The notes: generated by a model from the sequence alone, not told the origin. A stretch of 64,000 nucleotides of DNA from an uncultured archaeon (GCA_938045545.1 CALIBN010000007.1:64001-128000); one strand, 5' to 3'; shown: positions 1-44,149, numbered from the stretch's first letter. Numbers and translations are program-made.

Positions 1-1486
1 AATCATTTGGTGTCTAATGATGGTTTTCCAGGCCGCGTTAATCAGGCTGCAGCTGATTAAAAAAGAGAGGCTCCCATTCCCAATGATGATTCCGATTAAC
101 GAGATGCTTTCACAGCATCAGAAGGGAACCTTTACGCAATACATGAAGAAGCTTCCATTCATAGCAGGGGTAATACTGGGATGCATAATAGGTATACTAG
201 GGGCTTTAAACTATATTATTAAATTCACGACGGTGTTCTTCGCCTTCGGACAGTTCTACCAGCAATGGTTCGCCGACCTTATGAGCTCGATCTCTCAAAA
301 CACGATACAATCCTGGTGGATGTTCATACCCGCGGATGCTGCAATCATGTACCTTGCCCCCTTGGACATTCTTTCCTCAATAGTCATCTGGCTGTTCATC
401 TTCCAAATCCTGTTCCCACTGGTCCTCGTCAACACTGGGGTGATAACGCCCAACACTAACCCGGCTGGTACAGGCCCGTTCCCATGGCTAAACTTCAGCT
501 ACTACTGGGCCCCGTTGGCGATAGGCATCTGGACAATAGTCTTCGGCTACAAGACTTATGCTGAGAGCTTGAAGAAGAAGGAGTTTGCCCCGGGCGAACT
601 CCCAAATTCACTCGTATGGTACGGCTTCGCAGCCACATGGCTTCTCTGGCTCATCCTATGGGTCATATTCGGAGCCAACGTTCTCCCGTTGCTAGTGGGC
701 TTCATCGTGTGGTTCCTGTATACGACGGGTATGGTTGCTGTCTGCGGGGCAACAGGTACCTGGGTAGCTGGAGGAGACGCTGTTCCGGCGAGATTCTTAG
801 CGTGGGGAGTAGGCACTGGAATAGGCCTGTTCCCAGCAAGCGGTGCGGCTGCTAAAACTCAATCCGCGTGGGCAACGATGGCCGGCGTCAGCATAACTGC
901 CAGCATGGGTGGAGTGATTCATCAGAACACGCATTCCGCTTGGGCCTACACGTCAACCTACACGATGGTTGAACCCGCTAAGGTGAAGGAAACAGACATT
1001 CTAAAGTCGCACATCCTAGGAATACTTATAACGGTGCTTATCGGTGTTCCAGTTGCCGTCTACATAATCTACGGGACTGGAATAGGCCAGCTGAAGGCCT
1101 GGGGCCTCGGCAGCGGTGCAAACATCACCGGCTTCCAAGTGCCATGGGTAGTGGCTGATGCAGCGCCTCCTGCAGGCTTCCACTGGTGGATGTTCCCACT
1201 GGCTATAGTCGTGGTCGGCATCTTGTTCTTCCTGAGGGCTAGGTTCGCATGGTTCTTCTTCAGCCCGTATGCGTTATTCTTCTACTCTGGAATGTGGCTG
1301 ATAAACGCCGGGGTAGCGTGGATACTTAAACTCATAACGCTTAAAGTATTCGGAGCGAAGGCCTACGAAGAGGTTGGAGTACCCGTAGCAATAGGCTTCA
1401 TGGTTGGTGTCACTCTCATGGCTACGATAATCATGGGAGTGAACTCTGCTACCGGAGGAATATCAGTAGGACCGACAGGCTATTAG
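1..1486 (+). CDS. OPT-superfamily-like multi-pass membrane protein (cassette 1, gene A), 5'-truncated by the window edge
   Basis: The frame is open from base 2 (IIWCLMMV...). It has many TM segments and the motifs ERLPFP, YLAPLDIL and LKLITLKVFGAKAYEEVGVPVAIG, all shared with 41994..44090. It resembles what I recall as DUF6785/DUF6784 putative transporters (unverified). Confidence 0.7.
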   Translation, partial: IIWCLMMVFQAALIRLQLIKKERLPFPMMIPINEMLSQHQKGTFTQYMKKLPFIAGVILGCIIGILGALNYIIKFTTVFFAFGQFYQQWFADLMSSISQNTIQSWWMFIPADAAIMYLAPLDILSSIVIWLFIFQILFPLVLVNTGVITPNTNPAGTGPFPWLNFSYYWAPLAIGIWTIVFGYKTYAESLKKKEFAPGELPNSLVWYGFAATWLLWLILWVIFGANVLPLLVGFIVWFLYTTGMVAVCGATGTWVAGGDAVPARFLAWGVGTGIGLFPASGAAAKTQSAWATMAGVSITASMGGVIHQNTHSAWAYTSTYTMVEPAKVKETDILKSHILGILITVLIGVPVAVYIIYGTGIGQLKAWGLGSGANITGFQVPWVVADAAPPAGFHWWMFPLAIVVVGILFFLRARFAWFFFSPYALFFYSGMWLINAGVAWILKLITLKVFGAKAYEEVGVPVAIGFMVGVTLMATIIMGVNSATGGISVGPTGY

Positions 1487-1494
1487 ATCCAAAC

Positions 1495-1507
1495 CCTCTT
1501 TTTTTTG
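1495..1507 (+). terminator. Archaeal oligo-T terminator after cassette 1 gene A
   Basis: cctcTTTTTTTTg, with the T8 run 12 nt after the stop codon. Confidence 0.55.
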
Positions 1508-1599
1508 AGCCACGGCTTAGTTGCTTCCATGTCAGCTTAAGCCTCCTTATCGTTACCCTTGAGGACATGAGCTTCCTTTTAAAGAGGGGTTTTAACGAC

Positions 1600-1632
1600 G
1601 TAAAGTTTAAATCAATCTCGGTGGAGTTCCAC
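1600..1632 (+). promoter_or_regulatory. TATA box (AAAGTTTAAAT) and short inverted repeat GTGGA-gt-TCCAC upstream of the 1505-aa gene
   Basis: TTTAAAT at 1606-1612 lies about 25-30 nt before ATG 1637. The palindrome is at 1621-1632. Confidence 0.4.
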
Positions 1633-1636
1633 GTTA

Positions 1637-4600
1637 ATGATAATAGTCCAAAGAAAATATTTGCTTGTTGCTGTGTTTTTAACGATGCTTGTTGTCCCTC
1701 TCTTAGCAATACGGGGGAGTCGGGAGGCTGTTGAAGAAAAAACCTGGTTAAACCAGGAAGCCCCGTTGGTTTCAGCTGACAGGATAAGAGACTATGTGGC
1801 GTTGTTTTCATCAATACAGTCAAGGTTCACAGGCTACCCGGGCTCTCTCCAAGCAGCCAGAATCATAATGGACAAGTTTAACGAATCTGACCTGAATGTT
1901 AGCCTTTTCAACTACACGGTGCTGGTCCCGTATGACTCCGGCTCATACATGAAGGTGGGTGGAAGAGTGATTAAGGCTTATGCTCTCTACCCTAATGTTG
2001 TAGCCACGGGTTTGAAAAAGGCTTCCGGAAAGCTTGTCTACGCGGGCCACGGTACTCCGGAGGAGCTTAGGGGACTTGACGTGAATGGTAACATAGTCCT
2101 CCTTGAGTTTAACTCCGGGTCTGCATGGGTAGACATGGTTAAGCTGGGCGCCTCCGGCATCGTTTTCCTAGAGGACGGTGACACGAATCGCTTCGAAGCA
2201 TTGAGAAAAATCTCCTCTGTCCCACTGAATACTCCAAGAATATACGTAGCAGGCCAGGAAGCGTCTCAGCTCAGAGAAATCGCTAAAAACAATCCGGTTG
2301 CAGAGCTCGTTAACGGTATGGAGTGGAGAGAAGTTGAGGCTGTTAACGTGATTGGGGAAATGAAGGGTGTTGAAGACCCGTCTAAAGTAATTATTATAAC
2401 GGCGAACTATGACTCCGGGTCGATTGTACCAGGGGTCGCTCCGGGGGCTGATGAAGCCATAGGTATTTCTGTCATGCTTGAATTCATCAGATCTTTGAAG
2501 CATCAGGGCCTCTCGCCGAGATACACAGTTCTTTTTATAGCGATGTCTGGACATTGGCAGGCCCTAGCCGGTGCTAGAAGCTTCGTGGAACAATTCTACT
2601 TTAACAATTCCGCGATAGGCAGGGAAGTCTTCCCGTATCTCGTCATAGACATTAAGATCAGCTCAGGAAGCCCGCACTTAAACCTTGTTTACAGCGGCAT
2701 GATGTACTCCATCAATACTCAGTATATTGCAAGCAGGTTCAGAGACCTCCGAATATTTTTTGCAAATTCAATTAAATCTTTCATTCAATCTTTCCCAAGC
2801 TATAGCGAAAAGGTTTTAACGAGCAACCTGTATCCTGGTCTATACGGCATTGCATACGACTCGGCTAGTCCCGGTTTTCAGAAGGGCCTTGCCTTCAAGC
2901 ATATTCTCGAAATGGAGCCTTTTGAGCTGGCTAACAGCATTGGGCTCGGAATAATTACTTTCGACGACTTCAGGTATCGCGTTTTCACCCCGTCTGACAG
3001 GCTGGAGTTCATCGATTTCCAGAACGTCATACCTCAAGCACAGCTAACATTCCAGATCCTGTTCGACCTGTTGAAGGCTCCGGTTGAAGAATGGTATCCA
3101 GGCAGTTGGGAGGGTTTAAGACCGTTAAGAATGGGTGAAACCTACACTGGAGTTGGTTTCACTGTATTAAAGGTTGAAGTGGTTGAATACGACCCGACTA
3201 CGCCAGGCCTATACAGCCCGGTTCCAAAAGCTTTCGTCACAGTGGGGAGCACGTTGGACCCATTCACGCTGATGTTTTCTAAATCAGATTCTTCAGGCTT
3301 CGCGGTGTTCAGGGGTTTAAGGCCATATCCTGAGGCGACGACCGCGTTGCAAACCCCTATTCAGAGCTACGTGATCGACGAGGAGGGGAGAATAATCTAC
3401 GCCCCAGACAGGGGGCAGCATGGTGCCGGAACATATCCTTCAAGCGTAACGATAGTCTCACCTGAACAATTCACGAGGAACGTTGTGTTTAAATGCGGGA
3501 GCGCCGTCATGTTCGATTTAACCGACCCGGACACTCTGCAGGCTGCAGTCTCTCCAAGCTCGATGTTTGGAACCACGAATGCTTATTCGGCACAGCTCAG
3601 GAATTACGGTGGCTACGAGACCCCGCTAACGATAAGCGTGATGATGATGCAGATACCTGGATACTCTATTCTAGACTCGTTCGGCTACGAGTTCGACCCC
3701 ATTCTGTCGGTTGCACAGGTTTACGCCCCGCCCCGCATCAGGTTCGGCTTCGTTGTTAAAAGCACGTCTATGGCTAAAACGGTTGCAGTCTATACGAATG
3801 TGACTCTGCAGAACCAGGATGGGTACGGGTATTATTTGGGTAAAGAGGGGGACAGGCTGCTCGTAAAGGGTGGAATACCCGGCATGTTCATGGAGATGTT
3901 GACATTAGCATATGGCAGGTATTTGGCTCAAGCAGATATTCAAGTTCTGGACCCAAAGACGATGGAGAATTTGAATTATGCGATAATGTTTAACCAGACG
4001 CTTCTTCAGACGGCTTCGAAAAAGGATTACAGCGGGTTCTTGACGAGCGCTTTAATGGCTTGGGGGTTCTCCAGCAAGGCTTACCAAAGCTCTTTGAGCG
4101 TTGTACGCGACGCGGTTACGAGCATAATTCTCGTATTCGCTTTAGCAATACCCTTCATCCTTCTGTTTTCCTCCCTGGTTTACAATTTGAGCAGCGGCTT
4201 TAGAAGCGTCGCCCTTACTCTTGCTGTGGCGCTGTCCGTGGCGTTGCTTTTAACAGTATTCCACCCGGGTTTCGGGCTAGCGGTAAACGTGCCTGCAATA
4301 TTCATAGGGACGCTGATAGTTGCCCTGGTTATTCCAGTGATGTTCTTCCTGTTCTCCAACTTCTCTACAGGGCTTTCCAGGCTGAGGAGAGAAGTTCTTG
4401 GTGCGCACTTCCTTGAGAGAAGCGGATTCGACGTTTCGTTTTCAGCCGTATCCATAGGAATAGGCAACTTGAAGAAGCGTAAGTTTAGAACAGTATTAAC
4501 GATGCTGTGCATAGTAATCATAAGCTTCTCGCTTTCGTCTCTGACTTCCGTGACGGAGATAAGGGCTTTAAGAGTTACCCCAACGCCCACCGAGGTAACT

Positions 4601-6154
4601 TACAACGGGGTGCTGCTGAGAACAGCCAACTTCGTCCCTTTAAACAGGAAGTTGATCGACCTAGTGTCAACCTACATATCTGGCAAGACACTTTATGCTC
4701 CGAGGTACTGGGTTTATCTTCCTTCCACTCCTGGAGAGGGGACTGCTGGCACAATAGTAATATCCTCTGAGAAAAGCAAGGCTTTGATCTACGCGGCTGT
4801 CGGAATAAGCCCTGTAGAGTTGAAAGCATCGTTCAAGCAGGTTGAAAAAATACTTTTAGAAGGATCCATGTTTAAAGAGGAAGAGGTTTTCTCAGCATTA
4901 TTGCCGAACAGCCTTGCGGAAAGCCTTAAGGTGAAGACAGGCGAATACGTCTGGGTTAACGGCTTCCGCTTAAGAGTAGCAGGCATACTCAACACGACCG
5001 CAATTCTAGCATATGTGAAAGATTCAGATGGTTTCGTGGACGTCCTGCCCATGGACACGTATATTCTTTCGAACGAGAGAACTCCTCCCCGTGCTGAGGC
5101 AGCGTTGAGCCCAGGATCCGTAATATTCGTGCCCGCCGGCCTGGTTGAATTGATTCCGGAGGCATGCTTGACAAGCGTTTTCATACCGGCAGACGGGATG
5201 GTGTTCGAGGAACTTTACGAGAAGTGCGGCGAGGTTTTCTCCGCTTTCGAAGGTTTAAACATTTATCTGACGTATAACGGCACTGTCTACCGGTTCTCCA
5301 AGGAGAACGTTATCTCGCTATTCGGCTTCCAGTTCATTCTAATACCCATGATCATCGCGGGGCTGATAACTATGTCGACGATCCTAGGCGGAGTCATGGA
5401 GAGAATACGTGAGGGCTACATATATAGCAGTCTAGGCCTAGCACCGGTTCAAGTAGGCTTAATGTTCTTCGGGGAGAACATCATATACGCTATCGTAGGC
5501 TCGATGACAGGCTATCTCGGCGGCATCTCAGCCTCATACTTGACGAGGAAAATAGGCTTGATAAACCTCCCTGTGAACTACACGTCGTCATTCGTCATGA
5601 TAGCTGTCGGTCTGGTGATAGTGCTGGTTCTGGCAGCGTCGCTCTACCCGTTCTACAGAGTCTCCGTCACAGTAACCCCGTCGCTAGAGAGGAAGTGGCG
5701 TCTCCAGACTAAGCCGAAGGGAGACTCGTGGGACATACCGATACCTTTCCGTATAAAGGAGGATGATAGGGCCGCAGGAATGGCTGTTTTCCTCCATGAG
5801 TATCTCTGGAATAAGAGGATAGAGAGGGCAGGAGTCTTCTCCATTGAAAACGTTGAGGTCAGCAAGATAGAGTCTGGGATTGGTATTAAGTCAAGAGTCT
5901 GGCTGGCACCATTCGAGCAGAACATAAAGCAGGATATGAACATAGTGATATTGAAGAGCAAGACAGAGCAGAATTTCCTTATTTTAATGAATCTAACCAG
6001 GGTGTCCGGACCCTACGACTCATGGGTCAGGTTCAACTATCCCTTTATTGATGAGATAAGGAAGCAAATGCTGATATGGAACGTTCTCAATCCAGAGGAG
6101 CGGGAGAAATACATACGTATGGCTAGGGAGCGTAGCCTAGTAGGTGAGAAATAA
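1637..6154 (+). CDS. Large membrane protein: degenerate M28 peptidase-like + PA domain ectodomain fused to a MacB/FtsX-like permease (cassette 1, gene B)
   Basis: N-terminal signal/TM. SRFTGYPG, PA-like GKLVYAGHG...GNIVLL and M28-like ANYDS...APGADEAIG. MacB TM1 GNLKKRKFRTVLT, FtsX coupling helix ERIREGYIYSSLGL, and a C-terminal cytoplasmic domain. Confidence 0.8.
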   Translation: MIIVQRKYLLVAVFLTMLVVPLLAIRGSREAVEEKTWLNQEAPLVSADRIRDYVALFSSIQSRFTGYPGSLQAARIIMDKFNESDLNVSLFNYTVLVPYDSGSYMKVGGRVIKAYALYPNVVATGLKKASGKLVYAGHGTPEELRGLDVNGNIVLLEFNSGSAWVDMVKLGASGIVFLEDGDTNRFEALRKISSVPLNTPRIYVAGQEASQLREIAKNNPVAELVNGMEWREVEAVNVIGEMKGVEDPSKVIIITANYDSGSIVPGVAPGADEAIGISVMLEFIRSLKHQGLSPRYTVLFIAMSGHWQALAGARSFVEQFYFNNSAIGREVFPYLVIDIKISSGSPHLNLVYSGMMYSINTQYIASRFRDLRIFFANSIKSFIQSFPSYSEKVLTSNLYPGLYGIAYDSASPGFQKGLAFKHILEMEPFELANSIGLGIITFDDFRYRVFTPSDRLEFIDFQNVIPQAQLTFQILFDLLKAPVEEWYPGSWEGLRPLRMGETYTGVGFTVLKVEVVEYDPTTPGLYSPVPKAFVTVGSTLDPFTLMFSKSDSSGFAVFRGLRPYPEATTALQTPIQSYVIDEEGRIIYAPDRGQHGAGTYPSSVTIVSPEQFTRNVVFKCGSAVMFDLTDPDTLQAAVSPSSMFGTTNAYSAQLRNYGGYETPLTISVMMMQIPGYSILDSFGYEFDPILSVAQVYAPPRIRFGFVVKSTSMAKTVAVYTNVTLQNQDGYGYYLGKEGDRLLVKGGIPGMFMEMLTLAYGRYLAQADIQVLDPKTMENLNYAIMFNQTLLQTASKKDYSGFLTSALMAWGFSSKAYQSSLSVVRDAVTSIILVFALAIPFILLFSSLVYNLSSGFRSVALTLAVALSVALLLTVFHPGFGLAVNVPAIFIGTLIVALVIPVMFFLFSNFSTGLSRLRREVLGAHFLERSGFDVSFSAVSIGIGNLKKRKFRTVLTMLCIVIISFSLSSLTSVTEIRALRVTPTPTEVTYNGVLLRTANFVPLNRKLIDLVSTYISGKTLYAPRYWVYLPSTPGEGTAGTIVISSEKSKALIYAAVGISPVELKASFKQVEKILLEGSMFKEEEVFSALLPNSLAESLKVKTGEYVWVNGFRLRVAGILNTTAILAYVKDSDGFVDVLPMDTYILSNERTPPRAEAALSPGSVIFVPAGLVELIPEACLTSVFIPADGMVFEELYEKCGEVFSAFEGLNIYLTYNGTVYRFSKENVISLFGFQFILIPMIIAGLITMSTILGGVMERIREGYIYSSLGLAPVQVGLMFFGENIIYAIVGSMTGYLGGISASYLTRKIGLINLPVNYTSSFVMIAVGLVIVLVLAASLYPFYRVSVTVTPSLERKWRLQTKPKGDSWDIPIPFRIKEDDRAAGMAVFLHEYLWNKRIERAGVFSIENVEVSKIESGIGIKSRVWLAPFEQNIKQDMNIVILKSKTEQNFLILMNLTRVSGPYDSWVRFNYPFIDEIRKQMLIWNVLNPEEREKYIRMARERSLVGEK

Positions 6155-8073
6155 TGGAAGAGGCTGCACGTGAAAAAGAAGCTTTCATCCCTGGGCTGAC
6201 AATCGTATCGGTCTCCGCAGTATTGTTCGGGCTTGTGGTAATCGTGCCCGCAATAATCTATTTAGGCTGGGCCGTCGGCTCTTTAGGTGGGACCGAGAGG
6301 TTCATCCCGGTTTTCGTCACAATCCTCCTATTCACCGAGGCGGGGAGGCTCGTTAAGAGGTATATAACATCGCAGGAGGCTTACATAATATACTTCATGC
6401 TTCAAGCCATAGCCCTATGGTTCGTCGGCGGAGGAATGTTCGGCGATTTCCTTATAAGGTATTACTACAGGTCCGCCCCTTACACTATCCTATACGGTAT
6501 CGCTGAAAAGCTTCCCACATGGTATGTCCCTGAGCTCGGGAGCTACGGCCCACTCCACAGGACTTTCCTCTCCCCAGACTGGGTGATTCCGATATCGATT
6601 TCTCTAGCTGTTAACGTTTGCGTGCTGATGATAGATTACGGTGTTTCTTTCATAACAAACATGCTCTACATAGAGATAGAGAAGCTCCCATTCCCCGTCG
6701 CACCCATAGACTACCAGGCGATTTCAACCCTTACTGAGAGAACACCTGAGAAAATAATGTACTTCTCTTTCGCCGCTGTGATAAGCTTCATCTACGAGTT
6801 CGCCATCTATGGGATTCCAAACATAACCTCGATTTTCCTAGGCAGGGCTATAACCGTCATACCGTATCCCTGGGTGGACTTAACCACGGGGATTGAAAGA
6901 ATCCTGCCAGGAGCCGTTTTTGCAGTCGGAACTGATATTGCTCAATACATGGTGGGCTGGCTTATCCCGTTTAACGCCGCGGTATGGATGTTCATCGGGT
7001 CGGTGGCAGTCTGGGTTTTCGGAAACTCTATAGCGCTCAGGATTGACCATCCCTACTTCAGCATGTGGCAGAGAGAATGGACTTACGGCGCGTCAATCCA
7101 ATGGTGGTGGCAGAGAGCAATCTACGACCTGTGGGCAAGTCCACAAGTAGGTTTAACACTCGGGATCGCGCTTGGAATACTTGCTGTAGGAGCCAAAAAC
7201 ATTGCGCGAGCAATCCTCTCCCTCAGACATCTTTCGGCAGAGCAGCTTAAAACATCATACTTGCCTTTCAGCTGGATAGTTGCTTTAATCGCCGCCGGGT
7301 CTATAGGCGGGTTGCTTGTTTCAGTCTCCCTTGCCCCAGAACTATGGTTCGTCTGGGTGGTGACCTGGACGATAGTTCCGTTTATTCAAGGTATTCTGAC
7401 AGCCAGGGCCACTGCTGAAACCGGGTTATCTGTCACCATACCCTACATTAGGGAGGCGTTCTTCGTTTCTTTCACAAGGCCTGGAGACGTGGTCCCGTGG
7501 GTGGTTCCGACTCATGTGACAAGTAGCGCCGGGATAATTACGCACAGGGTCTACGTGGCTAAGCTCCTGAAAGTCAGGCCCCTGGACTACTACAAGGCCT
7601 ACCTCATATTCTTCATAGTAGCTATTCTCCTATCCCTGCTGTACGTTTCAATATTCTGGGCGATGACACCCATACCTTCTGCCTTCTACCCCTACGCCAG
7701 CTACTCCTGGCCTATTTCAGCCCTCTACTTCTCCCTATGGGTCTCCAGGTCGATCGAGATTTTCAAGGTGGACGTGATAGCTATCTCAAGCGTCTTATCC
7801 TTCATAATGGTCGTCGTCTCCTCCCGTTTCCCAACGCAATACTTCTCCCCAATAGGCTTCCTATACGGTTTTCAAAACATTCCCGCTTACACGCTTCCAC
7901 CGTTGATCGGAGCCCTGATCGGAAAATGGCTTGAGAGGAGAATGGGTAAGGATAAATGGGTGGTGCGGAGAGGAGTGATAATCGCCGGAACATTCTGCGG
8001 GATCGCGCTTGCAGTAGCAGCCGCTGTCGCCGTCACTATAATGGGGAGAGCGATAACAGCTAAACCTTTCTAG
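6154..8073 (+). CDS. OPT/YSL-superfamily-like transporter (cassette 1, gene C)
   Basis: About 16 TMs and an IEIEKLPFP motif. The start overlaps the upstream stop (TAATG). Paralog of 48705..50582. Confidence 0.7.
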   Translation: MEEAAREKEAFIPGLTIVSVSAVLFGLVVIVPAIIYLGWAVGSLGGTERFIPVFVTILLFTEAGRLVKRYITSQEAYIIYFMLQAIALWFVGGGMFGDFLIRYYYRSAPYTILYGIAEKLPTWYVPELGSYGPLHRTFLSPDWVIPISISLAVNVCVLMIDYGVSFITNMLYIEIEKLPFPVAPIDYQAISTLTERTPEKIMYFSFAAVISFIYEFAIYGIPNITSIFLGRAITVIPYPWVDLTTGIERILPGAVFAVGTDIAQYMVGWLIPFNAAVWMFIGSVAVWVFGNSIALRIDHPYFSMWQREWTYGASIQWWWQRAIYDLWASPQVGLTLGIALGILAVGAKNIARAILSLRHLSAEQLKTSYLPFSWIVALIAAGSIGGLLVSVSLAPELWFVWVVTWTIVPFIQGILTARATAETGLSVTIPYIREAFFVSFTRPGDVVPWVVPTHVTSSAGIITHRVYVAKLLKVRPLDYYKAYLIFFIVAILLSLLYVSIFWAMTPIPSAFYPYASYSWPISALYFSLWVSRSIEIFKVDVIAISSVLSFIMVVVSSRFPTQYFSPIGFLYGFQNIPAYTLPPLIGALIGKWLERRMGKDKWVVRRGVIIAGTFCGIALAVAAAVAVTIMGRAITAKPF

Positions 8074-11398: not shown

Positions 11399-11535
11399 GC
11401 TTGCGGGATAAGTATCACCATTGCCATTCGTATCCGCGTGCTAGCTGTGTAGGTGAGCTTTTCCTCACTATAGTCGCAGAATGTTAACGCAAGAAACTAG
11501 GAATTTAAGGTTGTTTTTCACACGCATCAAACGTT

Positions 11536-12384
11536 TTATTCTGCCCTAACCAATAACACTATGGTTTGAGGCCCGATTTGGAGTGCTAATGCCTTTAGTT
11601 TTTCTCTACAGTAAAACGGAGAATAAATTATCGTCATGTTTCCCTGCTTTAAAACATACTGTGCGAATTCTCCACCATCCCGGGTCCAAGGCAGAATAGG
11701 GATTATCTCAAACGATCCATCCTCATACTCCACTTTAACCCCGGCGGAGAACATCTCAACCTCAGATACGGGTGTATTACCGTAAAAACATTCATGGAGG
11801 CGGAGTATTGTTGGCGCAAGGTAGGTGAAGACTACTCCTCTGAAGACTATTTTCGTACCGTTCTCCAGCTCGCTCGCCGTTACCAGCAGGTATCTGAACC
11901 TTAAGCCTCCCACTGTAACAAAATCTTCTGAAAGATCCAGGTTTTCGTAAAGCGGTATTTGCCTTGACGCAACCCGATGAATCTCAGGGATCGTCACCGC
12001 TGATAGCAGGACAACGATTACAGCTAAACTTAGAATATTAAGCATCCTACTCTTTCTTACACTCATCTGTTCAACGAGCTGTGTAAACCGTAAAGCCTCC
12101 CTCCCATCGTCACTTATCACATACTTTCCATAGGCGTCCTGTTTCACAAGGTCTCTCAGCCTCTCTAAGTGGTACTGAAGATGGCCACTGCTCTCCATCC
12201 CCAGAGCCTTTTTAAGCTCCGAAAAGCCCATGGGTTCCTGCCGAAGAACCTTCAATATCCTTATCCTCACGGGATGCGCGAGAACGTCGAAGAGCTCAGC
12301 CCTTCTTATAGAATCATCCCTCTCCATTGATTCCGAATGTTTCACACATGATTTAAGGCTTTTCAAGTCTAAAATTCTGGACAA
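11536..12384 (-). CDS. Membrane-anchored ArsR-family winged-helix regulator (HTH-TM-extracellular domain); likely start 12327
   Basis: ELFDVLAHPVRIRILKVL...FSELKKALGMESSGHLQYHLERL, then one TM (ILSLAVIVVLLSAV) and a ~150-aa C-terminal domain. Confidence 0.8.
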   Translation of the reverse strand: MSRILDLKSLKSCVKHSESMERDDSIRRAELFDVLAHPVRIRILKVLRQEPMGFSELKKALGMESSGHLQYHLERLRDLVKQDAYGKYVISDDGREALRFTQLVEQMSVRKSRMLNILSLAVIVVLLSAVTIPEIHRVASRQIPLYENLDLSEDFVTVGGLRFRYLLVTASELENGTKIVFRGVVFTYLAPTILRLHECFYGNTPVSEVEMFSAGVKVEYEDGSFEIIPILPWTRDGGEFAQYVLKQGNMTIIYSPFYCREKLKALALQIGPQTIVLLVRAE

Positions 12385-12398
12385 GCAGGAATATAGAT

Positions 12399-12441
12399 AC
12401 CTGATTAGGTCTAGAAGAGAGGCATTATATATGCACTTCTA
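12399..12441. promoter_or_regulatory. Divergent promoter with imperfect inverted repeats around a TATA element
   Basis: TAGAAG...GCAT-tatat-ATGC...CTTCTA at 12412-12441 and ACCT-gatt-AGGT at 12399-12410. Confidence 0.35.
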
Positions 12442-12470
12442 AATACTCCTTAATGGAAGGAGGTGAGAAG

Positions 12471-13181
12471 ATGAGAACAGTAAAAGTGCTGTCTAGGAGA
12501 AGTTCTACTATCTTAAGTTTTGCTCTAATTTCCTTTCTCGCGGCAATAGTGCTGTTACAGGGTAAGGTGAGGAGTCAAGCGGCCGGTCCAGAAAAATTAA
12601 TCCCGATCAATATTCAAGCAATAAAGCTCGAGAATCCTACAAACGATCCGTACAAATGGCCCCCTCCGTTCGTAAGGGAAATCATGTTGGATGACGGAAG
12701 AGTATTGAAAGTTAACCTCTGGGGCTTCATCCTCAGGGCTACAGGGCAACTTATTAAAGAGGAGGGGTATTTCTGGATCGCATCTTGGAAGTTCATGTAT
12801 ATTGCCGGATCCCCTAAAGGTTCAAGCTCCGCGAAAGCCACCCTTCATTTCACATTCTTGACCTTTGAGAGGCCGGAGCCATCTTCAATAGGCGAACCAA
12901 TCGGAGGAGTGCTTTCTCCTCGAGAGGCCCGCCTACATGGCGGTTTCTATGAACCGGCGGGTGCACCGATATGGGTAACAATCACGTGGGAACCGGCGGA
13001 CAGGCCAATAATAGTATCTACCTACTGCGCCGAAACCAGAAGAGGGCAAGGCTATCAAATCACTGGAGGTAGCTGGACCGGAAACCTGACGGTACTCGAC
13101 TCGGGAATCAACTATGTTGTAGTGGGGAACCCAAATGACGATGTCACTATAACGTATTCAGGCGAGTTAATCTGGCCATAA
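12471..13181 (+). CDS. Secreted or membrane-anchored hypothetical protein with a C-terminal beta-sandwich
   Basis: RBS GGAGGTGA at 12459-12466 before ATG 12471. Basic N-terminus followed by a hydrophobic signal/TM. Beta-rich C-terminus. Confidence 0.65.
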   Translation: MRTVKVLSRRSSTILSFALISFLAAIVLLQGKVRSQAAGPEKLIPINIQAIKLENPTNDPYKWPPPFVREIMLDDGRVLKVNLWGFILRATGQLIKEEGYFWIASWKFMYIAGSPKGSSSAKATLHFTFLTFERPEPSSIGEPIGGVLSPREARLHGGFYEPAGAPIWVTITWEPADRPIIVSTYCAETRRGQGYQITGGSWTGNLTVLDSGINYVVVGNPNDDVTITYSGELIWP

Positions 13182-13706
13182 TCCAACTCTATACTCAATC
13201 TCCTCTCTCTTATTTTTCCGCTTCGCTGTTTTAAACACGACATTCTCTTAATAAATTTGAGACCATGTTTATGGAATAAGTATCAGCGTCATCCCTTATA
13301 TTCTGTCAGGCGATATGCGCTAAATAGTGATGCAGCGCACCTATACGATTGCTGCCCCTTCTTGAGAGAAATGTTCATGATGTTTCCTATGACCTTTGGC
13401 ATCGATCTGCATAGACAGTTATTGCCGCGAAGAGTCAGGGGCCTCTTACTGAAGCCAAAAATATGAATAGGGCAGAAATATTTCACTTCTTTCCAATTTC
13501 AGAGGAAACTGAATGCAATTTTGAAATCAAGAATGAGTTAAACGCTTCCCTACTGGATTTTAGATTTAGCTGATGAAGTTACAGGCCTCATAAAACTTCG
13601 AGAGAGGCTTAAATACATGAGGCTTGAATGATGCTGGACAAACAAATTCAAATATTGGAAAATGACAGATGAAATAAAAATGAAGGCATGAGGTTTAGGA
13701 AGGTCT

Positions 13707-14804
13707 TTACGTATATTCTCCGTATTTTCTGATCAGCTTTATGTATTCTTGAAATGCGCTGAAAGAAACATCAGGCGGCACACTGTGGTCTGAACATGCT
13801 ATGTATCCCCCGCCTTTTTTTGCGACGGGTATCTTGCGGGATATTTCAACCTCAATCTCCTTGGGGTTGCCAATCTTCCTTGCATCGAGGTTTCCAATGA
13901 AGGAAAGGGTCTTCCCATATTTCTCTTTCAGCTCGACAACATCCATTCCCGCCTTAACTTCCATCGGCTGTAAGGCCGTGAAACCAGCTTCGATCAATTT
14001 CGGGATCAACAGGTTCACGTTGCCGTCAGTATGCAATATGGTCGGCATATTCCTCACCCTATAGGCAGAGGTCATTTGAGCATGCGCCGGCTTCACGAAC
14101 TCGTCGTAAACCTTCGGGGAGAAGAACGGCCCCTTGTTGTAACCTATATCGTCCCAAACCCACAGTCCGTCAACTCCTAGCTTAAGATAGGTTTCCACGA
14201 TCCTTGAGAAATACTGGCCCAAATGTCTGAAAATATACTTAACGAGGTCCGGATCCCTGTGGATCGCGACTAACACCTTGTCCACGCTTTCCCCAAGTAT
14301 ATGTCTAGTTGCTTCAAAAGGGCCTATTATCGAGCAGAATACGGCGTAATGCTCCTTCAACCTCCTTATGCCTTCCTCAAGCTCCCTCTTAAACGGGTAT
14401 CTGCTGCTTGAAACCCTGATTGGCAGCTCAGGGTCTAACAGGGGCTCAAGCTTCTCTTTAAAATCCTCAATCGTCGAGACCGATGGTGGTCCAGCGGGAT
14501 GAGGCGTACCGCTCCTACCGATCCAAGCCTTCACCCTCACGCCCCAGGAATCTATGTATGTTCGAAACTTATCATTCTCTTCGAGTATGATGGTGTCATA
14601 CTTAGGACTTACATCCGGACCTATTAGGTAGATATCGTAGCCAAAATAATCATGTAAGGAAACTCCTCTAGGCAGGCCCTCGCTATACCATCTCTCCAGG
14701 GTTTCGCCCCATGGGAAATCTATGAAGGGAACCCTGTCTGCCTCCTCGTGGTTTAACACTCTTAACACCCGTTCCCTCGAATCCATGTTTTTCAAAAATC
14801 CCAC
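13707..14804 (-). CDS. Uroporphyrinogen decarboxylase (UROD/MtaA) family protein; likely start 14786
   Basis: MDSRERVLRVLNHEEADRVP, GPFE, DDIGYNKGPFFSP, HTDGN and GGGYIACSDHSV. Confidence 0.85.
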   Translation of the reverse strand: MGFLKNMDSRERVLRVLNHEEADRVPFIDFPWGETLERWYSEGLPRGVSLHDYFGYDIYLIGPDVSPKYDTIILEENDKFRTYIDSWGVRVKAWIGRSGTPHPAGPPSVSTIEDFKEKLEPLLDPELPIRVSSSRYPFKRELEEGIRRLKEHYAVFCSIIGPFEATRHILGESVDKVLVAIHRDPDLVKYIFRHLGQYFSRIVETYLKLGVDGLWVWDDIGYNKGPFFSPKVYDEFVKPAHAQMTSAYRVRNMPTILHTDGNVNLLIPKLIEAGFTALQPMEVKAGMDVVELKEKYGKTLSFIGNLDARKIGNPKEIEVEISRKIPVAKKGGGYIACSDHSVPPDVSFSAFQEYIKLIRKYGEYT

Positions 14805-22608: not shown

Positions 22609-22609
22609 T

Positions 22610-23296
22610 TCAACTCACCGTCTCCCTGACAATCATGCCGTCAAGCATGTACACTATTCTCTTAGCTTCCGCAGCCAGCTGCTGATCATGGGTAACCATT
22701 ATTATTGTTACACCCTTATCCTCATTAAGCCTTTTTACGAGCCTTATTATTTCGTAAGCGTTTTTAGAATCTATGTTTCCAGTGGGTTCATCCATAAGCA
22801 AGAATCTCGGGTTGTTGGCTAGGGCTCTGGCAATCGCGACGCGTTGCTGCTCGCCCCCACTGAGCTCCGTCGGCTTGTGATTCATCCTGCTTGCTAAACC
22901 AACCATTTGCAAGAGTTCCTCAGCACGTTTTCTCCTCTCGCCCTTGCTTAAGCCGGCAATCGACATGGGTAGTTCAACGTTCTCCCTTGCTGTGAACCTC
23001 GGAATAAGGTTGAAGAATTGGAAGACAAACCCTATTTTAATCCTTAAATCCGCAAGCTGGTTATCATTCAGGGCTGACACATCAATGTTTTCGATGAAAA
23101 GCTTTCCCCCCGTAGGCTTGTCTAAAGCTCCTATCAGGTTTAGGAGAGTCGACTTTCCGCTTCCCGAGGGCCCTAGTACTGAGAGAAACTCGCCCTCCCT
23201 CACTTCAAGGTTTACTTCACGAAGAGCCTCAACCGGAATCCTGCCCTGCATGTAGGTTTTCCTGAGATCAACAGTTTTAATGATGGTCTTAGCCAT
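22610..23296 (-). CDS. MacB/LolD-type ABC ATP-binding protein
   Basis: [33 protein letters not shown] and VTHD. Confidence 0.92.
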
Positions 23297-38745: not shown

Positions 38746-39035
38746 ATCGCTAAATAAAATGTTGGCTTATTATTAGCTTTTATCGTGGTATCAGCTGGAA
38801 AGAGAATTAAACAAAAAGGTATTCCGGATGAAGGTCTTAGGGCTGTTTTCGAGTTAGCTGGTCATAAACACGGGCATGGCTTCTTTCCAAGAGGATTCGT
38901 AGTTGAGTATAGTCCTTAAGATACTGATGGTGTTCCACACGCATAGAATCAAGGGCTGTCAATATTCTTGACAGCCAGTCAATGTCGATAGAATTATATT
39001 TGCCACTCTAGCATTTGTTTAACAGGTGATGTTGC

Positions 39036-39460: not shown

Positions 39461-39516
39461 GAAGGCAGCCTTATTCATGATCATGAAAAGAATGATAAAA
39501 ATAGGGTGCTTGAAAC

Positions 39517-40291
39517 ATGACGTATTCACCCCCAGTTTTCGTTAAAGAGCTCGTGGTTAAATATGGTTCTTTCGTTGCTGTCGACGGTATTTCATTCACC
39601 GTTGAACCCGGGGAAATATACGGACTTCTCGGTCCCAACGGGGCTGGTAAAACCAGCACTTTGAAAAGTGTTAACCGGGCTTTTAAAGCCTGCTTCCGGG
39701 AGAGTTGAAATATTCGGCAGGCCTCTTTCAGACGAGGTTGCTGTGAAAAGCATGATGGGCTATGTTCCGGAGGAGGTCATTCTGATGGATTCACTAACCC
39801 CAAGGGAATTCCTAGAATTCGTCGCCTCCATTAGGCGTCTAAACGCAGACACGGTTAACACGCGGCTTGAGAAACTGGTTTCAGCGTTTCAACTCAGAGA
39901 GTATTTCGACACACCTATCGCAGCCCTTTCCAAGGGGAATAAGCAGAAGGTCGCGGTAGTAGCGGCTCTGATGCACGAGCCAAAGCTCCTAATTCTAGAC
40001 GAGCCCCTGATAGGGCTTGACGCGTTCTCATCTAAAATACTCAAGGAACTGTTGACTTTCCACGCGAGCAAGGGTGGTGCAGTGATTTTTTCAACACACA
40101 TCATGGAGGTTGCTGAAAGACTCTGCACGAGAGTGGGTATAATAAACAGGGGGAGGATGGTTGGTGAGGGCACAGTCGATGGTCTTCGAAAACTGGTTAA
40201 GAGCGCGGAAGGCTCCTTAGAGGAAATATTCTTGAAGGTGACTGAGCAGGAGGCTGGAGTCCAGGAGATAGTTAAAGCATTGGAGGCGTAG
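39517..40291 (+). pseudogene. ABC exporter ATP-binding protein with a +1 frameshift in an A4 run (39664-39667)
   Basis: Walker [10 protein letters not shown] is in ORF 39517-39708. LSKGNKQK, LDEP and STH are in ORF 39668-40291. Confidence 0.75.
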
Positions 40292-40296
40292 GGTTA

Positions 40297-41955
40297 ATGA
40301 ATACTTCTGAACTCTGACAGCTGTCGAAAAAGGTTTACAGGGAGATAGTTTTCCAATCGTTCTTCTCACTCCGCGTAGGCGGGACCCTGCCTCAAACGGG
40401 TGACGTTGAGAAAAACATTGCGAAACTAGTCAGTAGTGCCGAGGTTAACGCTACCTTCAGTAAGCTCATGATGGCTTTTTTCATAGGTGTAATAGGTGTT
40501 TTCACTTTCTTCTCAGGCGTTCTGCTTGAAATGGACAGGGAGCTTGCTGCCGCATGCGGTGTTTCATCAATGCTCAGCATAGTCCTCTTCATGATAGTTT
40601 TCATGGGGTTACAGGTTGCGACATCCTTTGTCTCCTCCAGGGTTGCAGAGTTCCTCATCCCCCTACCAGTTTCAAGCGGGGATGTTTCAAAAATCCTCCT
40701 AATGTGCTTCATAAGGATCTTCGACATTCCATTAATAGCGGCGGTCTTTATACTCCCAATAGCATACGGGGTCTCATACGGCTCTATCTCGGGTGCTTTA
40801 ACCGTCCTTCTTAGCGTCGTAACTACGGAGATATTCGCATTGACTATAGCTGTTTTCCTAGCCCTATCCTTCTACTCTAAAGTGGTTAAGGGAGGAGGAG
40901 GCTCAGCGTTGAGAACCCTCATGAGGCTCTTCTACATGCTGGTCTGGATTATTCCGATGTTTCTCATGTACGCGGTCACGAGTTTCGCGATGCAGATGGT
41001 TAACCTGATGAAAACCCTTACTCGGAGCCTCTCTCACCTGCTTACATTGCTATACCCTTTTTCACTCGGCTTCTTAGCTTCATTAGCTACCTTCTTTAAA
41101 ATCGATGACCCTAGTATTGCTGCCCTATCAGTAGGCTCCTCGCTTCTCTACCTCGCCCTGGCAACATACTCTTTCAAATGGCTTGTCAAGAGGGTGGTTG
41201 GGATAGGCTTTGGAAGTGTTGCCGCAGGCAGTAGGGTGGAGGTTAAAGAAGTCTCCATAAATCCTGGGCCACCTTGGCTCGGGGTTCTTAAGAAGGATCT
41301 TAGGATCGCTTCAAGGTCTCCCTCCTACTTCAGCATACTTATAATGCCGGTTATACAGGTCATAATTTTCAGCTTCTCCTTCAGCTCCCTATATTCAGAT
41401 GTGAGCGGCGCTCCAGCGGAGCTCCTATCTTCCATGCTTCTGCCCCTATTCATGTTCATGGTTTCTTTACTTATAATACTATTACTTCCTCCCATGCTTC
41501 TAAACACTGAGAGCATTGCTTATTCCTACGTTGGAAGCCTGCCTTTAAGAAGCAGGACGCTGATTCTTGCTAAGACAATCCTAACGTCAATCGTATACCT
41601 GCTTTCGCTCCTCGTATCGTTGACGATAACTATGTTAAGAGCACCAGGACTCATACGCATATTCGCGCTTTTCGGAGGTGTTTCCACCTTCTCCGCCGCT
41701 GCTTCAATAATGTTTGAAACCCTTCTGATCTCAAGAATACTTGGGCAAACCGTCTCATCGGGAAACCTTTATTCAAAATTCCACTATTATATTCTCCCAT
41801 TGATACTGGGCTTCATGGTTGCAATGGTTCCAACCCTAGTATACTTCATGACACTGCTTCTAACAGCTTCCTTTGTTCTAGGCATAATCTGTTTAACAGC
41901 TACCTCGATCCTGGAGTTTTTAATCGCAGTTCTGCTTCTAGTTAGAAAGGGATAG
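40297..41955 (+). pseudogene. Archaeal ABC-2-like 12-TM permease with a premature TGA at codon 7 (40315-40317)
   Basis: ATG 40297 is in frame with ORF 40468-41955 (MNTSEL*QLSKKVYREIVFQS...). Motifs FLIPLPVS, KKDLRIASR and SLPL..LILAK. Confidence 0.65.
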
Positions 41956-41993: not shown

Positions 41994-44090
41994 ATGGTGA
42001 AAGGCATGAGTGAGGAAAAAGAATTCCTCCTCGGCAAATTTTTGAAGTCTCGAGGATTCATAGTTGGCCTAGTAATCTCCATAGTGATGATGCTAATACA
42101 GCTTTCAATAGACTGGACCAACGTTAATCTGACGCTGTGGGGTATGAATGCTGGCGCATTTCTAGTCCTATTTGTGCTGGCAATACTTGGCTACTTTCTC
42201 AGTTCCCTGAGGCTCAGGGCAGACGAATACGCTATCGTTTTCGCCATGGTGACGGTGAGCCTTGGCTTCGCCTGGTCTGTAGCCGTACCATTTTCAATAT
42301 CGATTTTCAACACAGCTTGGGAAAAACAATGGTGGTACATGGGATACTGGGTGTCCACAATACCGGGAGCCCTGGAGATGAGCCCCCTTTTCGGAGTAAA
42401 GGACGCAGAGGCGGCTTTAGCTGCTTTCACCGGGGGAACCTCTGTTCCTTGGGCGGCTTGGGCGCCTGCGTTAGGCTACTGGATCGTCTTCACGATAGTC
42501 TTGGTAGTATTCATGATTTCAATGGGGATGATACTTCGGAAACTATGGATAGACATTGAGAAACTTCCGTTCCCATATTTGAACATTACTAATGAGCTTA
42601 TCAATTTGGGTCTTGGCGTAACCGAGAAGCCCCGCGTGAAAAAGATACTGATAGGCATACTCATAGGCTTTCTACTAATGCTCGGGAACCTAATAGATGC
42701 CTTGGCACCCGGGAGAGGATGGAACCTGTGGCAGACCTACCACATTGAAGCCTTGGAGGTCGCATTGCCCAATTCAAGCTGGTTCTTCAGCGTTTCACCA
42801 TCTCAGCTAAGCTTATGGTATCTCGCACCGCTGGATGTTCTCTTCACCGCCGTAATCGCCTGGTTTATATTCGCAGACATTATTCCAGCCATATCAGCTT
42901 GGGCAGGATACGCGGCGCTGCAGGCACCTTGGGGAAGCTCCGGGGGAGCATGGCACAACATGGCTTCAGGCGCTATCGCACCTGTTTCCGGCGGTATGAT
43001 CGGATGGGGCGCGATGATCGGCTTAGGCCTCTGGCTTCTCGTCTACGCAAGGAAATACATTGTTTCCACGCTTAAAAACGCGTTTGGCAAGAAGGTGCTG
43101 GACGAGTCTAACGAGCCGTTCTCGTACAGAACTCTCTGGCTGGCCTTCATAGTTTCAATCGTGCTGCTCATAGTGCTCATGGTCGCCGTCTACATTCCAG
43201 TCTGGGCAGCAGGTATAATCGTAGTATATACTTGTCTCCAGTATGTTGCGACATCCAGGATCCGTGGTGAAAGCATAGCGAAGGGTGACATTCCCTGGGA
43301 ATCACAGGAGGTTTTGGCCACGCTATTGTCTCAAGCAGGCCTCTACTCGCTCGTCGGACCCCAAGCATCGGCAGCGTCTCAAGCTGCATACGGGCCAGGT
43401 GCCTACACGGCTTGGAACATGGGTTACGTGGTGACTGGGCACTACACGTGGTACTGGGGCGGCGCGGGCACGCCTCAGAGCGCTCAGCTTGAAGCCTTCA
43501 AATTGGCGACTTTAACCAAAACACATAACAGGGCTATGGCTATTTCAACCATTGTGGCCATGGTCCTCGCTGTCCTCATATGTCTCCCGCTGTGGCTGGT
43601 CTTCACGTACATGATTGGGATTGACAAGGGCTTCGGGCATGGCGGCACCCTCTACAGCCAGTGGGTCAGCCCAGCATGGTGGAGTCAAGAAGCCATTTTT
43701 AACGCTGCTTTTAACCAAGCTCAAGGCTGTTCCTGGTTTAACTGGAACAAGGACCTGCTGGGACTTGAGCTGGCGAACTGGGCTGCAGGCTTCTTCCTCG
43801 CCGGAGTTCTTCTCTGGGCTAGGGTTGCATTCGCCCGGTTTCCATTGAATCCGGTGGGTCTCATCATAGGCTTGTGCCAGCCTGCACACTGGCTTTGGGG
43901 CTACCTTCTTGTCGCATGGGTTTTGAAGTTTATAACGTTTAGAATAGGCGGCTCAAAGCTCTATGAAGAAAAAGGCGTGCCGCTGGCGATAGGGATATTC
44001 CTAGGCTCATTCATAGTATCCATAATTACCGACATATTCCTGCCGGTTGCACAAGCAGGAATAGAATGGGCTCCTGCTGTTCCAGGTTGA
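41994..44090 (+). CDS. OPT-superfamily-like multi-pass membrane protein (cassette 2, gene A)
   Basis: About 16 TMs. Motifs VPWAAWAPAL, WIDIEKLPFP, YLAPLDVL and LKFITFRIGGSKLYEEKGVPLAIG. Confidence 0.72.
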   Translation: MVKGMSEEKEFLLGKFLKSRGFIVGLVISIVMMLIQLSIDWTNVNLTLWGMNAGAFLVLFVLAILGYFLSSLRLRADEYAIVFAMVTVSLGFAWSVAVPFSISIFNTAWEKQWWYMGYWVSTIPGALEMSPLFGVKDAEAALAAFTGGTSVPWAAWAPALGYWIVFTIVLVVFMISMGMILRKLWIDIEKLPFPYLNITNELINLGLGVTEKPRVKKILIGILIGFLLMLGNLIDALAPGRGWNLWQTYHIEALEVALPNSSWFFSVSPSQLSLWYLAPLDVLFTAVIAWFIFADIIPAISAWAGYAALQAPWGSSGGAWHNMASGAIAPVSGGMIGWGAMIGLGLWLLVYARKYIVSTLKNAFGKKVLDESNEPFSYRTLWLAFIVSIVLLIVLMVAVYIPVWAAGIIVVYTCLQYVATSRIRGESIAKGDIPWESQEVLATLLSQAGLYSLVGPQASAASQAAYGPGAYTAWNMGYVVTGHYTWYWGGAGTPQSAQLEAFKLATLTKTHNRAMAISTIVAMVLAVLICLPLWLVFTYMIGIDKGFGHGGTLYSQWVSPAWWSQEAIFNAAFNQAQGCSWFNWNKDLLGLELANWAAGFFLAGVLLWARVAFARFPLNPVGLIIGLCQPAHWLWGYLLVAWVLKFITFRIGGSKLYEEKGVPLAIGIFLGSFIVSIITDIFLPVAQAGIEWAPAVPG

Positions 44091-44093
44091 TAT

Positions 44094-44121: not shown

Positions 44122-44149
44122 CAGGATTAGGCATGAAGGTGAGTAGGGA

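Follow-up and report, generated by a model that had tools for sequence, protein, structure and literature searches.

What might be the function of three large membrane-protein genes, A, B and C, that stand side by side at two places in a 64,000-nucleotide stretch of DNA from an uncultured archaeon (GCA_938045545.1, CALIBN010000007.1:64001-128000)? This whole stretch, which we call the window, covers positions 64001-128000 of contig C7, in a genome of 2.03 Mb and 51 contigs. We find that A, B and C are one unit, or cassette, conserved across archaea and bacteria. B joins a peptidase-like ectodomain to a membrane anchor of the MacB/FtsX type, and A and C are distant relatives within the OPT superfamily of permeases. 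The function that we prefer, with a confidence evenly balanced between belief and doubt, is that the three proteins are the membrane parts of one ATP-driven type VII ATP-binding cassette (ABC) receptor that feeds OPT-fold permeases, and that has expanded in the manner of a nutrient-uptake system.

Paralogous cassettes in the genome

The first cassette consists, on the + strand, of A1 (2..1486), B1 (1637..6154; 1505 amino acids, aa) and C1 (6154..8073; 639 aa). A1 belongs to the DUF6785+DUF6784 family and is open at its 5′ end at the window edge; in the genome the full gene encodes 660 aa from a TTG start (contig C7 63504-65486, which is 11504..13486 of the fetched locus L001). In the second cassette, also on the + strand, A2 (41994..44090; 698 aa) is again a DUF6785+DUF6784 permease, B2 (44150..48712; 1520 aa) has the architecture of B1, and C2 (48705..50582; 625 aa) is an OPT-like permease. 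A first-pass annotation of the window had reported that the three genes recur in the same order at 41994-50582, with nearly equal sizes of B and of C, and our open reading frames (ORFs) agree with it. It had counted two copies; two are indeed in the window, and a third cassette lies on contig C29, where the arrangement is different: C(-), B(+), a 229-aa ORF(-), A(+).

The strong divergence between copies described in the same annotation was also found. A1 and A2 are 25% identical (E 3e-20), B1 and B2 27% identical end to end over 1537 columns (E 3e-150), and C1 and C2 29% identical (E 4e-71); copies 1 and 2 are true but old paralogs. The coupling of B to C, likewise noted earlier, is seen in both copies as an overlap of the two frames: they share 1 nt (TAATG) in the first copy and 8 nt in the second, and a GGAGG- or GGTGA-like stretch precedes each overlapping junction. 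The spacers between A and B are 150 nt (copy 1) and 59 nt (copy 2) long. The former contains a T-run and a TTTAAA box, which suggests that A may be transcribed separately.

The closest relatives of B1 and C1 carry the source names Thermoproteota, Thermoprotei or Bathyarchaeia archaea. These names indicate that the host is a Thermoproteota archaeon, probably Bathyarchaeia-like.

Domain structure of B

B1 consists, in order, of a signal anchor, a PA+M28 head, a β-rich middle region, a bundle of three transmembrane (TM) helices, a MacB/FtsX module, and a C-terminal cytoplasmic domain. In the head (residues ~45-480; 1769..3076, + strand) a PA domain is inserted in an M28-like domain, the metal site of which is degenerate in alignments to 2ek8 and 1amp. 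The three-helix bundle, which is family-specific and was identified from hydropathy and the model described below, carries a conserved HPGF motif (residues ~818-914; 4088..4378, +). The MacB/FtsX module (residues 949-1346; 4481..5674, +) runs from TM1 through a Porter/Sabre-like extracytoplasmic domain to TM2, a coupling-helix motif, TM3 and TM4, and is followed by a family-specific α/β domain (residues 1347-1505; 5675..6151, +).

Pfam identifies Peptidase_M28 in B with 39.5 and 55.6 bits (cut-off 21.3; E 7.4e-15 for B2) and FtsX with 43.3 and 51.2 bits (cut-off 25.5; E 1.6e-13 for B2; residues 1233-1343 of B1). In B3, from the third cassette, MacB_PCD also scores above its cut-off, and there is a weak match of B to Nicastrin. 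When the profile of B was compared with the PDB, the head matched the PA-aminopeptidase 2ek8 (8.5e-29), YwaD, nicalin (1.1e-11) and the transferrin receptor TfR1 (~5e-10), and the anchor matched MacB and LolC.

We take the two-zinc ligands and catalytic Glu of the Vibrio aminopeptidase (1amp) to be His97, Asp117, Glu151, Glu152, Asp179 and His256, with the numbering checked on the alignment. B1 has N at the position of H97, H at E151 and W at E152. Among 23 relatives of B, the E151 position is never Glu (it is His in 14) and the E152 position is never acidic. In the columns assigned to H256 and D179, which were placed by motif rather than by structural alignment, the former is never His and the latter is Asp in 4. 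On these alignments the head is a pseudo-peptidase throughout the family, one that is recognisable as an M28 domain and lacks the catalytic site.

The model of the B1 anchor (residues ~815-1505) has a predicted local distance difference test (pLDDT) score of 82. The helices of the TM bundle are at 2-35, 41-61 and 71-107 of the model, and P877 and F879 within the bundle are nearly invariant. Foldseek matched the anchor with a probability of 1.00 to MacB, LolC/E, the pneumococcal Spr0694-0695, HrtBA, YtrEF, YbbAP and BceAB (E 4.8e-10 for MacB 5gko), and its extracytoplasmic domain to the periplasmic domain of MacB (3ftj) with a TMt of 0.59. B has the features of a type VII permease: an FtsX domain, and four TM helices of which the first two are separated by a large extracytoplasmic domain.

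Between TM2 and TM3 lies the stretch ER.REI..S.LGL; here R1256, E1259, G1267, L1268 and P1270 do not vary among the 23 sequences compared, archaeal and bacterial alike. In MacB the major coupling helix sits at the TM2-TM3 position and the minor one after TM4 (PMC5985334). The ER.REI...LGL.P motif of B is at the position of the major coupling helix, and a conserved TPSLER sequence after TM4 is at that of the minor one. By position and conservation B thus has the coupling helix that type VII permeases carry on the cytoplasmic side, between their second and third TM helices, and which would contact a nucleotide-binding domain (NBD). The C-terminal domain, of ~160 aa, is conserved to the terminus in archaeal and bacterial B, and is modelled as β-α-β4-α2; it gave no usable match in the protein atlas and has no recognisable relative there.

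In a library of 1.84 billion proteins, the anchor family comprises 1079 clusters at 50% identity (E<=1e-30). Most of the best 150 clusters contain proteins of ~1450-1550 aa with the anchor at the C-terminus. The source names seen for the family go no further than 'FtsX-like permease' or 'M28 family peptidase'.

We note that FtsX anchors also occur with other heads. A protein of at least 1670 aa on contig C38 (L004 6216-11225, -) has a GH2-like N-terminus followed by MacB_PCD and FtsX, and adjoins genes for BacA and a sugar nucleotidyltransferase, without A or C nearby. A second protein of this kind (1031 aa; L003 4401-7493, -) has genes for a polysaccharide deacetylase and for GHL10 as neighbours, again without A or C. 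Open frames of ~1800 aa with weak matches to the anchor region (E 1e-13 to 1e-22) recur in many relatives.

Permeases A and C

The part of A1 inside the window matches DUF6785 (E 4.4e-07; 29.2 bits, cut-off 25). In A2 a match to DUF6785 (5.4e-37; 127.9 bits) is followed by one to DUF6784 (2.3e-14; 53.8 bits), and A3, from the third cassette, matches DUF6785 with 67.5 bits; at Pfam gathering scores A is thereby a member of the family defined by DUF6785 followed by DUF6784. Profile-profile comparison shows the A and C families to be homologous end to end (hhalign 99.7%, E 3.4e-27, 565 columns), and they have an E-K/R-L-x-F-P motif in common. The cassette therefore holds two distant permeases of the OPT superfamily.

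C is divergent. C2 scores 25.6 bits against Pfam OPT (PF03169) over residues 10-610, just below the cut-off of 25.8, and C1 has no Pfam match. PF03169 was matched at E<=1e-3 by 16 of 44 aligned members of the C family (best 3.5e-17), which matched no other family; a bacterial C (locus L028) reaches 33.3 bits, and some sources label relatives of C 'OPT/YSL family transporter'. The AlphaFold2 model of C1, made on the 44-member family alignment, has a pLDDT of 90.2 and a predicted template-modelling score (pTM) of 0.89. Its only neighbours in the PDB at E<=1e-3 are the structures of barley YS1 (HvYS1), 7WSR and 7WST (Foldseek; 7wst_A E 2e-10, 7wsr_A E 5e-10), with template-modelling scores of 0.67-0.72 (0.68/0.72 for 7wst_A) over ~665 columns and a sequence identity of 14-15%. 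On this model C has the OPT/YSL three-dimensional fold. HvYS1 is the structural reference of the OPT/YSL family, and is described as proton-coupled and elevator-like (bioRxiv 10.64898/2026.08.27.747422). By sequence alone, neither the C profile nor the A profile retrieved a PDB chain; two weak profile matches, to a pilin and a Fab, were dismissed as noise.

Some of the C-like open frames of Latescibacterota (genomes G041, G042 and G043, e.g. G041:C1:6458323-6461445) are 1066-1078 aa long. In these the match to C is split (4-533, 539-637) by an insertion of ~380 aa.

One conserved unit in archaea and bacteria

We then analyzed the occurrence of the three genes in 41 related genomes. B was matched in 28 of these, at 87 loci after merging of split hits, of which 63 are at least 3.6 kb long. 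C lies within 1 kb of 55 of the 63 full-length B loci, and B within 1 kb of 65 of the 81 matches to C. With A2 as the single query, A was found near 35 of the 63 B loci; this query misses even A3 of the same genome. When a nine-sequence profile of A was applied instead to 20 archaeal B loci with 7.5-kb flanks, which we chose from the 63 and which come from seven genomes, A and C were each detected in 19, and the complete trio in 18. Both exceptions stop at contig ends. The gene order in archaeal loci varies, and includes A-B-C, C<-B..A, B-C-A and A-C-B.

The arrangement extends to other phyla, in a scan that used one genome per species and a three-sequence bacterial seed; it is biased to bacterial relatives and gave at least 25 loci, which do not amount to a census. 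C comes directly after B in two loci of Planctomycetota, three of Victivallales and one each of Lentisphaerae and Desulfobacterales, as well as in a named Bathyarchaeia metagenome-assembled genome. A is near 6 of these 8 B-C loci by hidden Markov model (HMM) search. In the Desulfobacterales locus (L031) it was detected by the Pfam scan only, and in locus L032 it was not detected. One Latescibacterota genome has 7 B-type genes, and its 6 loci other than the fusion have A, B and C in 4 cases and A and B in 2 within the fetched stretch. Moreover, in 15 loci from Latescibacterota and Gemmatimonadota B and A are a single ORF of ~2100 aa, and a 16th such locus is fragmentary. The one fusion checked with Pfam (L017) reads M28+MacB_PCD+FtsX+DUF6785+DUF6784.

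The distance matrices of A, B and C from 25 triads correlate with r = 0.93-0.95, a value inflated by shared descent, and none of 2000 permutations reaches it (Mantel test). This indicates that, as far as such sequence distances tell, the cassettes duplicate and diverge as sets. Four kinds of evidence, namely neighbourhood, occurrence in other phyla, fusion and co-divergence, show that A, B and C are one real unit.

Much of what the first-pass annotation said of the proteins holds. Its OPT-like A and C are borne out by the A-C alignment and by the similarity of C1 to HvYS1; its fusion of a dead peptidase to MacB is recovered in the M28 and FtsX matches, the lost site and the Foldseek match to MacB; and its single paralog-expanded unit is seen in the synteny across domains of life, the B-A fusions and the co-divergence. 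Co-occurrence of all three holds for 18/20 archaeal loci and for bacterial phyla, and it does not extend to every A: the A family is expanded in three relatives (G018, G020 and G033; up to 41 matches in G020), and in all 12 loci fetched from these (L074-L085) A stands without B or C. The neighbours of these solitary A genes are cytoplasmic enzymes, such as URO-D-like methyltransferase, xylose-isomerase-like, GH4, GH53 and MTTB genes. This is as expected of an autonomous importer, and leaves B-C as the obligate core of the cassette.

Prediction of a complex of C1 with B1 residues 815-975 and 1225-1400 gave a score of 0.04 (mark 0.32). B given in two pieces may have lost the interface, and the result speaks neither for nor against a complex.

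ATPases and the source of energy

The earlier annotation had seen a machine without an ATPase, and here the bacterial relatives tell otherwise. In all seven loci from PVC bacteria (Planctomycetota and Lentisphaerota) and Desulfobacterota, a MacB-type ABC ATPase is encoded upstream of B on the same strand, and it abuts B in 6 of the 7. These seven ATPases match the window's own MacB-type ATPase with E 1e-66 to 1e-73. In the Victivallales operon (L028, L030 and L033) the order is A, a 298-aa ORF, a second FtsX protein (522-533 aa), ATPase, B, C and a second ATPase, which suggests a heterodimeric FtsX pair with two ATPases. A dedicated ATPase is thus found in relatives, within a system that is itself not characterised.

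The archaeal cassettes are different. No MacB-type ATPase lies beside B in the 20 archaeal loci or at the three cassettes of this genome, and the only ABC ATPase seen in the 20 loci is of another type. Likewise, the 16 loci with a fusion lack one, as do 6 more from Latescibacterota. A cognate NBD, fused or alongside, is therefore present in 7/7 PVC and Desulfobacterota relatives and missing beside B in this genome. Use of an ATPase in archaea and Latescibacterota can for this reason only be proposed indirectly.

The genome has four MacB-type ATPases. One of these is an orphan (contig C18 13157-13879; L040 7157-7879, -), with no FtsX gene nearby and with housekeeping genes, for ABCE1/RLI, triose-phosphate isomerase and ArgRS, as neighbours. 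Its identity to the ATPases of the bacterial cassettes is 52-63%, and orthologues at >=70% identity are present in 27 of the 28 B-positive and 3 of the 13 B-negative relatives. This co-occurrence follows phylogeny and is confounded by kinship, so that its support is weak. From the bacterial adjacency, the invariant coupling motif and this orphan taken together, we infer that archaeal B is energised by an ATPase in trans. The orphan gene is single-copy, and identity stays at or above 70% even in relatives that belong to other families within the class.

A canonical MacB-type ABC set lies in the window at 19932-23296 (-). Its ATPase gene occupies 22610-23296, and after it come two ORFs, one of 425 aa with an FtsX-like tblastn match and one of 468 aa.

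The first-pass annotation had also stated that no ATPase or regulator lies beside either copy. For copy 1 no ABC ATPase was seen within ~12 kb upstream and ~4 kb downstream (two ORFs at the far end of the upstream stretch, L001 309-2530, excepted), and a helix-turn-helix (HTH) gene (DUF7347/HTH_20; 11536-12384, -) lies 3.4 kb past C1. For copy 2 the statement fails: an HTH gene, an ATPase and a permease lie upstream. The ATPase (39514-40291) and a PF09847 12TM_1 permease (40468-41955) together span 39514..41955 on the + strand. The ATPase is frame-shifted, with Walker A in one frame and the remainder in another, and the ArsR-like HTH gene (39030-39460) is also split over two frames. In relative G007 the same ATPase is intact (262 aa) and abuts the permease; in relative G009 it is mostly deleted. 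The split HTH and ATPase genes at 39030-40291 reflect either gene decay or an assembly error. We considered this ATPase as a partner of B and rejected it. It pairs with the 12TM_1 permease, its reading frame is shifted in this assembly, and most of it has been lost in G009; it is not of the MacB type, and is absent from the 13 genome matches of the cassette-type ATPase (E<=1e-20). The pair is probably a separate ABC-2-type system.

Proposed function and alternatives

In the ATP-driven receptor that we propose, B would be a type VII transmembrane subunit of the MacB/LolC/FtsX fold with a dead PA+M28 ectodomain. Its ABC ATPase, which is encoded beside B in PVC bacteria and Desulfobacterota and in this archaeon would probably be the orphan of contig C18 acting in trans, would drive mechanical movement that passes by way of B's coupling helix to the ectodomains. 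The ectodomains would bind an oligomer on the outer side of the membrane, most probably one derived from glycans but perhaps a peptide, and would pass it, presumably within a physical complex, to the OPT-fold permeases A and C, which would carry it across the membrane. The paralogous cassettes, 25-30% identical, would serve different substrates. Import of extracellular oligomers is the direction that we favour, because the cassettes are numerous and divergent, because those OPT/YSL proteins that have been characterised are importers, and because of the gene context. As to the substrate class, we lean towards glycans, as a leaning and not a result.

Several points weigh against this proposal. 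We know of no import role for a type VII ABC system, and OPT transporters are proton-driven on their own, so that each family can do without the other. Those type VII ABC systems that have been characterised handle substrates located at the outer face (PMC5985334). No MacB-type ATPase accompanies the archaeal, fusion or further Latescibacterota cassettes, the co-occurrence of the orphan ATPase with B is confounded as described above, and shared descent raises the Mantel correlation. The genes flanking archaeal cassettes are heterogeneous, no family occurring in more than 4 of 108 flanking ORFs. Finally, the solitary loci suggest that A may be independent of B.

An importer that works without ATP is the most serious alternative, although we consider it unlikely. 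Here the MacB part of archaeal and Latescibacterota B would be only a dimeric scaffold or anchor for a receptor-coupled secondary importer, and A and C would use proton-motive force. In its favour, there is no MacB-type ATPase beside any of 23 archaeal cassettes or any of 22 Latescibacterota/Gemmatimonadota loci. This reading also agrees with the proton coupling described for OPT/YSL transporters (bioRxiv 10.64898/2026.08.27.747422) and with the presence in B of a family-specific cytoplasmic domain right after TM4. This domain is, however, equally conserved in the bacterial members that have an ATPase, and hence does not replace one; the ER.REI...LGL coupling motif is invariant in archaeal B too, and an orphan MacB-type ATPase is present in the genome. 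Alternatively, the cassette could face the other way, as a machine for export, extraction or envelope assembly like LolCDE, MacAB or HrtBA, which would move a surface molecule (a lipid-linked glycan, lipoprotein or secreted polymer) by way of OPT-fold exporters or flippases. We find this rather improbable. In its favour, every structural neighbour of the anchor works as an extractor, an exporter or a mechanotransmitter, and the giant protein on contig C38 with its GH2-like head, beside BacA and the sugar nucleotidyltransferase, stands in an envelope-glycan context. Nevertheless, three divergent cassettes and many loci in relatives in our judgement fit nutrient systems better, the neighbours are mostly catabolic glycosidases and sugar transporters, and neither a glycosyltransferase nor a polymerase is among the families listed for the cassette flanks.

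Control or protection, in the manner of FtsEX-EnvC or BceAB, would give the head, moved by ATP, the task of activating or positioning extracellular hydrolases or of sensing a ligand, with the OPT proteins importing independently. EnvC carries a catalytically dead peptidase domain. FtsEX acts through EnvC, a regulator of amidases (PMC7668044); BceAB is among the fold neighbours of the anchor, and glycosidases are frequent neighbours of the cassette. Neither a hydrolase nor a two-component system is conserved in the flanks, where the ceiling of 4 in 108 ORFs applies to every family, and the fact that B is tightly coupled to C and in places fused to A suggests that it works directly with the permeases; we regard a control module as quite improbable. 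That the adjacency means nothing, and reflects chance or the shared history of an island, deserves almost no credence: A genes can occur alone, but the trio has been retained in Archaea and in no fewer than five bacterial phyla, where genes have changed places or fused and frames overlap.

The ATP-driven receptor could also represent a new class of uptake system: a type VII ABC mechanotransducer that bears a receptor-like dead-peptidase ectodomain would spend ATP on loading oligomers into OPT permeases. It would be paralog-expanded and comparable to a polysaccharide utilization locus (PUL), would occur in Bathyarchaeia-like archaea, Planctomycetota, Lentisphaerota and Latescibacterota, and would have one orphan ATPase serving many archaeal cassettes. 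We hold this wider claim tentatively and think it rather more probably wrong than right.

The cassette is multi-copy in uncultured lineages. These are considered to play a major part in breaking down the complex organic matter of sediments, and to our knowledge they are not known to have SusCD-type systems. If it is an uptake system, the cassette would show how these organisms acquire oligomers, and would provide both an import role for type VII ABC proteins and a partner for prokaryotic OPT proteins. The B-A fusions and the compact ATPase-B-C operons of bacteria make the hypothesis directly testable.

Comparison with known systems

No cassette with this domain combination was found described in the open literature, subscription texts and supplements aside. 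We read the cassette as a type VII ABC system whose ectodomain and whose class of partner are both new. B resembles the known members (MacB, LolCDE, FtsEX, HrtBA, YtrEF and BceAB) in its four-helix FtsX topology, MacB-like periplasmic core and coupling motif, and, in PVC bacteria and Desulfobacterota, in having a separate MacB-type ATPase encoded beside it. It differs from them in its additional N-terminal ectodomain of ~800 aa, three TM helices and C-terminal domain of ~160 aa; in its partners, which are OPT-fold permeases and not MacA/TolC, LolA, EnvC or a kinase; and in that no ATPase is encoded beside archaeal and Latescibacterota B.

The permeases are similar to OPT/YSL proteins (PF03169, barley YS1) in that the C1 fold superposes and A is homologous to C, whereas the identity of C1 to HvYS1 is low, and C1 and C2 are respectively without a Pfam match and just under the cut-off. 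We know of no described OPT protein that works with an ABC-type partner or a tethered receptor, and none was found in the open literature.

The nearest functional analogy is FtsEX-EnvC, where a type VII ABC system couples ATP hydrolysis to an extracytoplasmic partner. There, however, the dead domain is LytM/M23, is on a separate protein, and has amidase activation as its output, while the dead domain of B is M28 and is fused to the permease. Transferrin receptor, nicalin and nicastrin also have M28 pseudo-peptidase ectodomains, with the catalytic site lost, on membrane complexes; they are eukaryotic and single-pass, whereas the head of B is fused to a prokaryotic MacB-type multi-pass anchor. 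The similarity to SusC/SusD, TRAP and TTT systems is one of concept only, namely a receptor outside plus a transporter, in paralogous cassettes near glycosidases. No homology to SusC/SusD was found: A, B and C have no TonB-dependent barrel, SusD, DctP or TctC domain in Pfam, and the lineages that bear the cassette include monoderm archaea.

Gene context

The first-pass annotation suggested looking for carbohydrate-active enzymes around the cassettes, and these are indeed frequent neighbours. Around the three cassettes of this genome there are GH2 β-mannosidase-like, BNR sialidase-like, weakly GH43-like, CBM4_9 and GH42-like genes; other parts of the window hold GH4, another GH2, a GFO/IDH/MocA oxidoreductase and MFS transporters. 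The 108 ORFs flanking the 20 archaeal loci include MFS_1 (4), Sugar_tr (3), NamZ (2), GH130 (2) and one GH3 gene, as raw counts from the 25 commonest families, without a genome background. Inside or beside a Planctomycetota cassette are an acetyl-xylan-esterase-like (AXE1-like) gene and a gene with PKD and glucodextranase domains.

A conserved fourth gene was considered and rejected, since the genes of ~350 aa after C1 and C2 are unrelated to each other and no Pfam family exceeds the frequency given above among the flanking ORFs.

Downstream of cassette 2, the MFS_1 matches at 51859-53053 fall in two overlapping ORFs of 193 and 260 aa, which cover the N- and C-terminal parts of the profile and are probably one frameshifted MFS transporter gene. 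The region is rich in catabolic genes: in addition to GH2, GH4 and LarA-like genes, the window contains URO-D-like (MtaA-type methyltransferase-like) genes at 13707-14804(-), 37720-38745(-) and 56079-57509(+), and aldehyde:ferredoxin oxidoreductase genes at 28419-30197(-) and 35241-37061(+).

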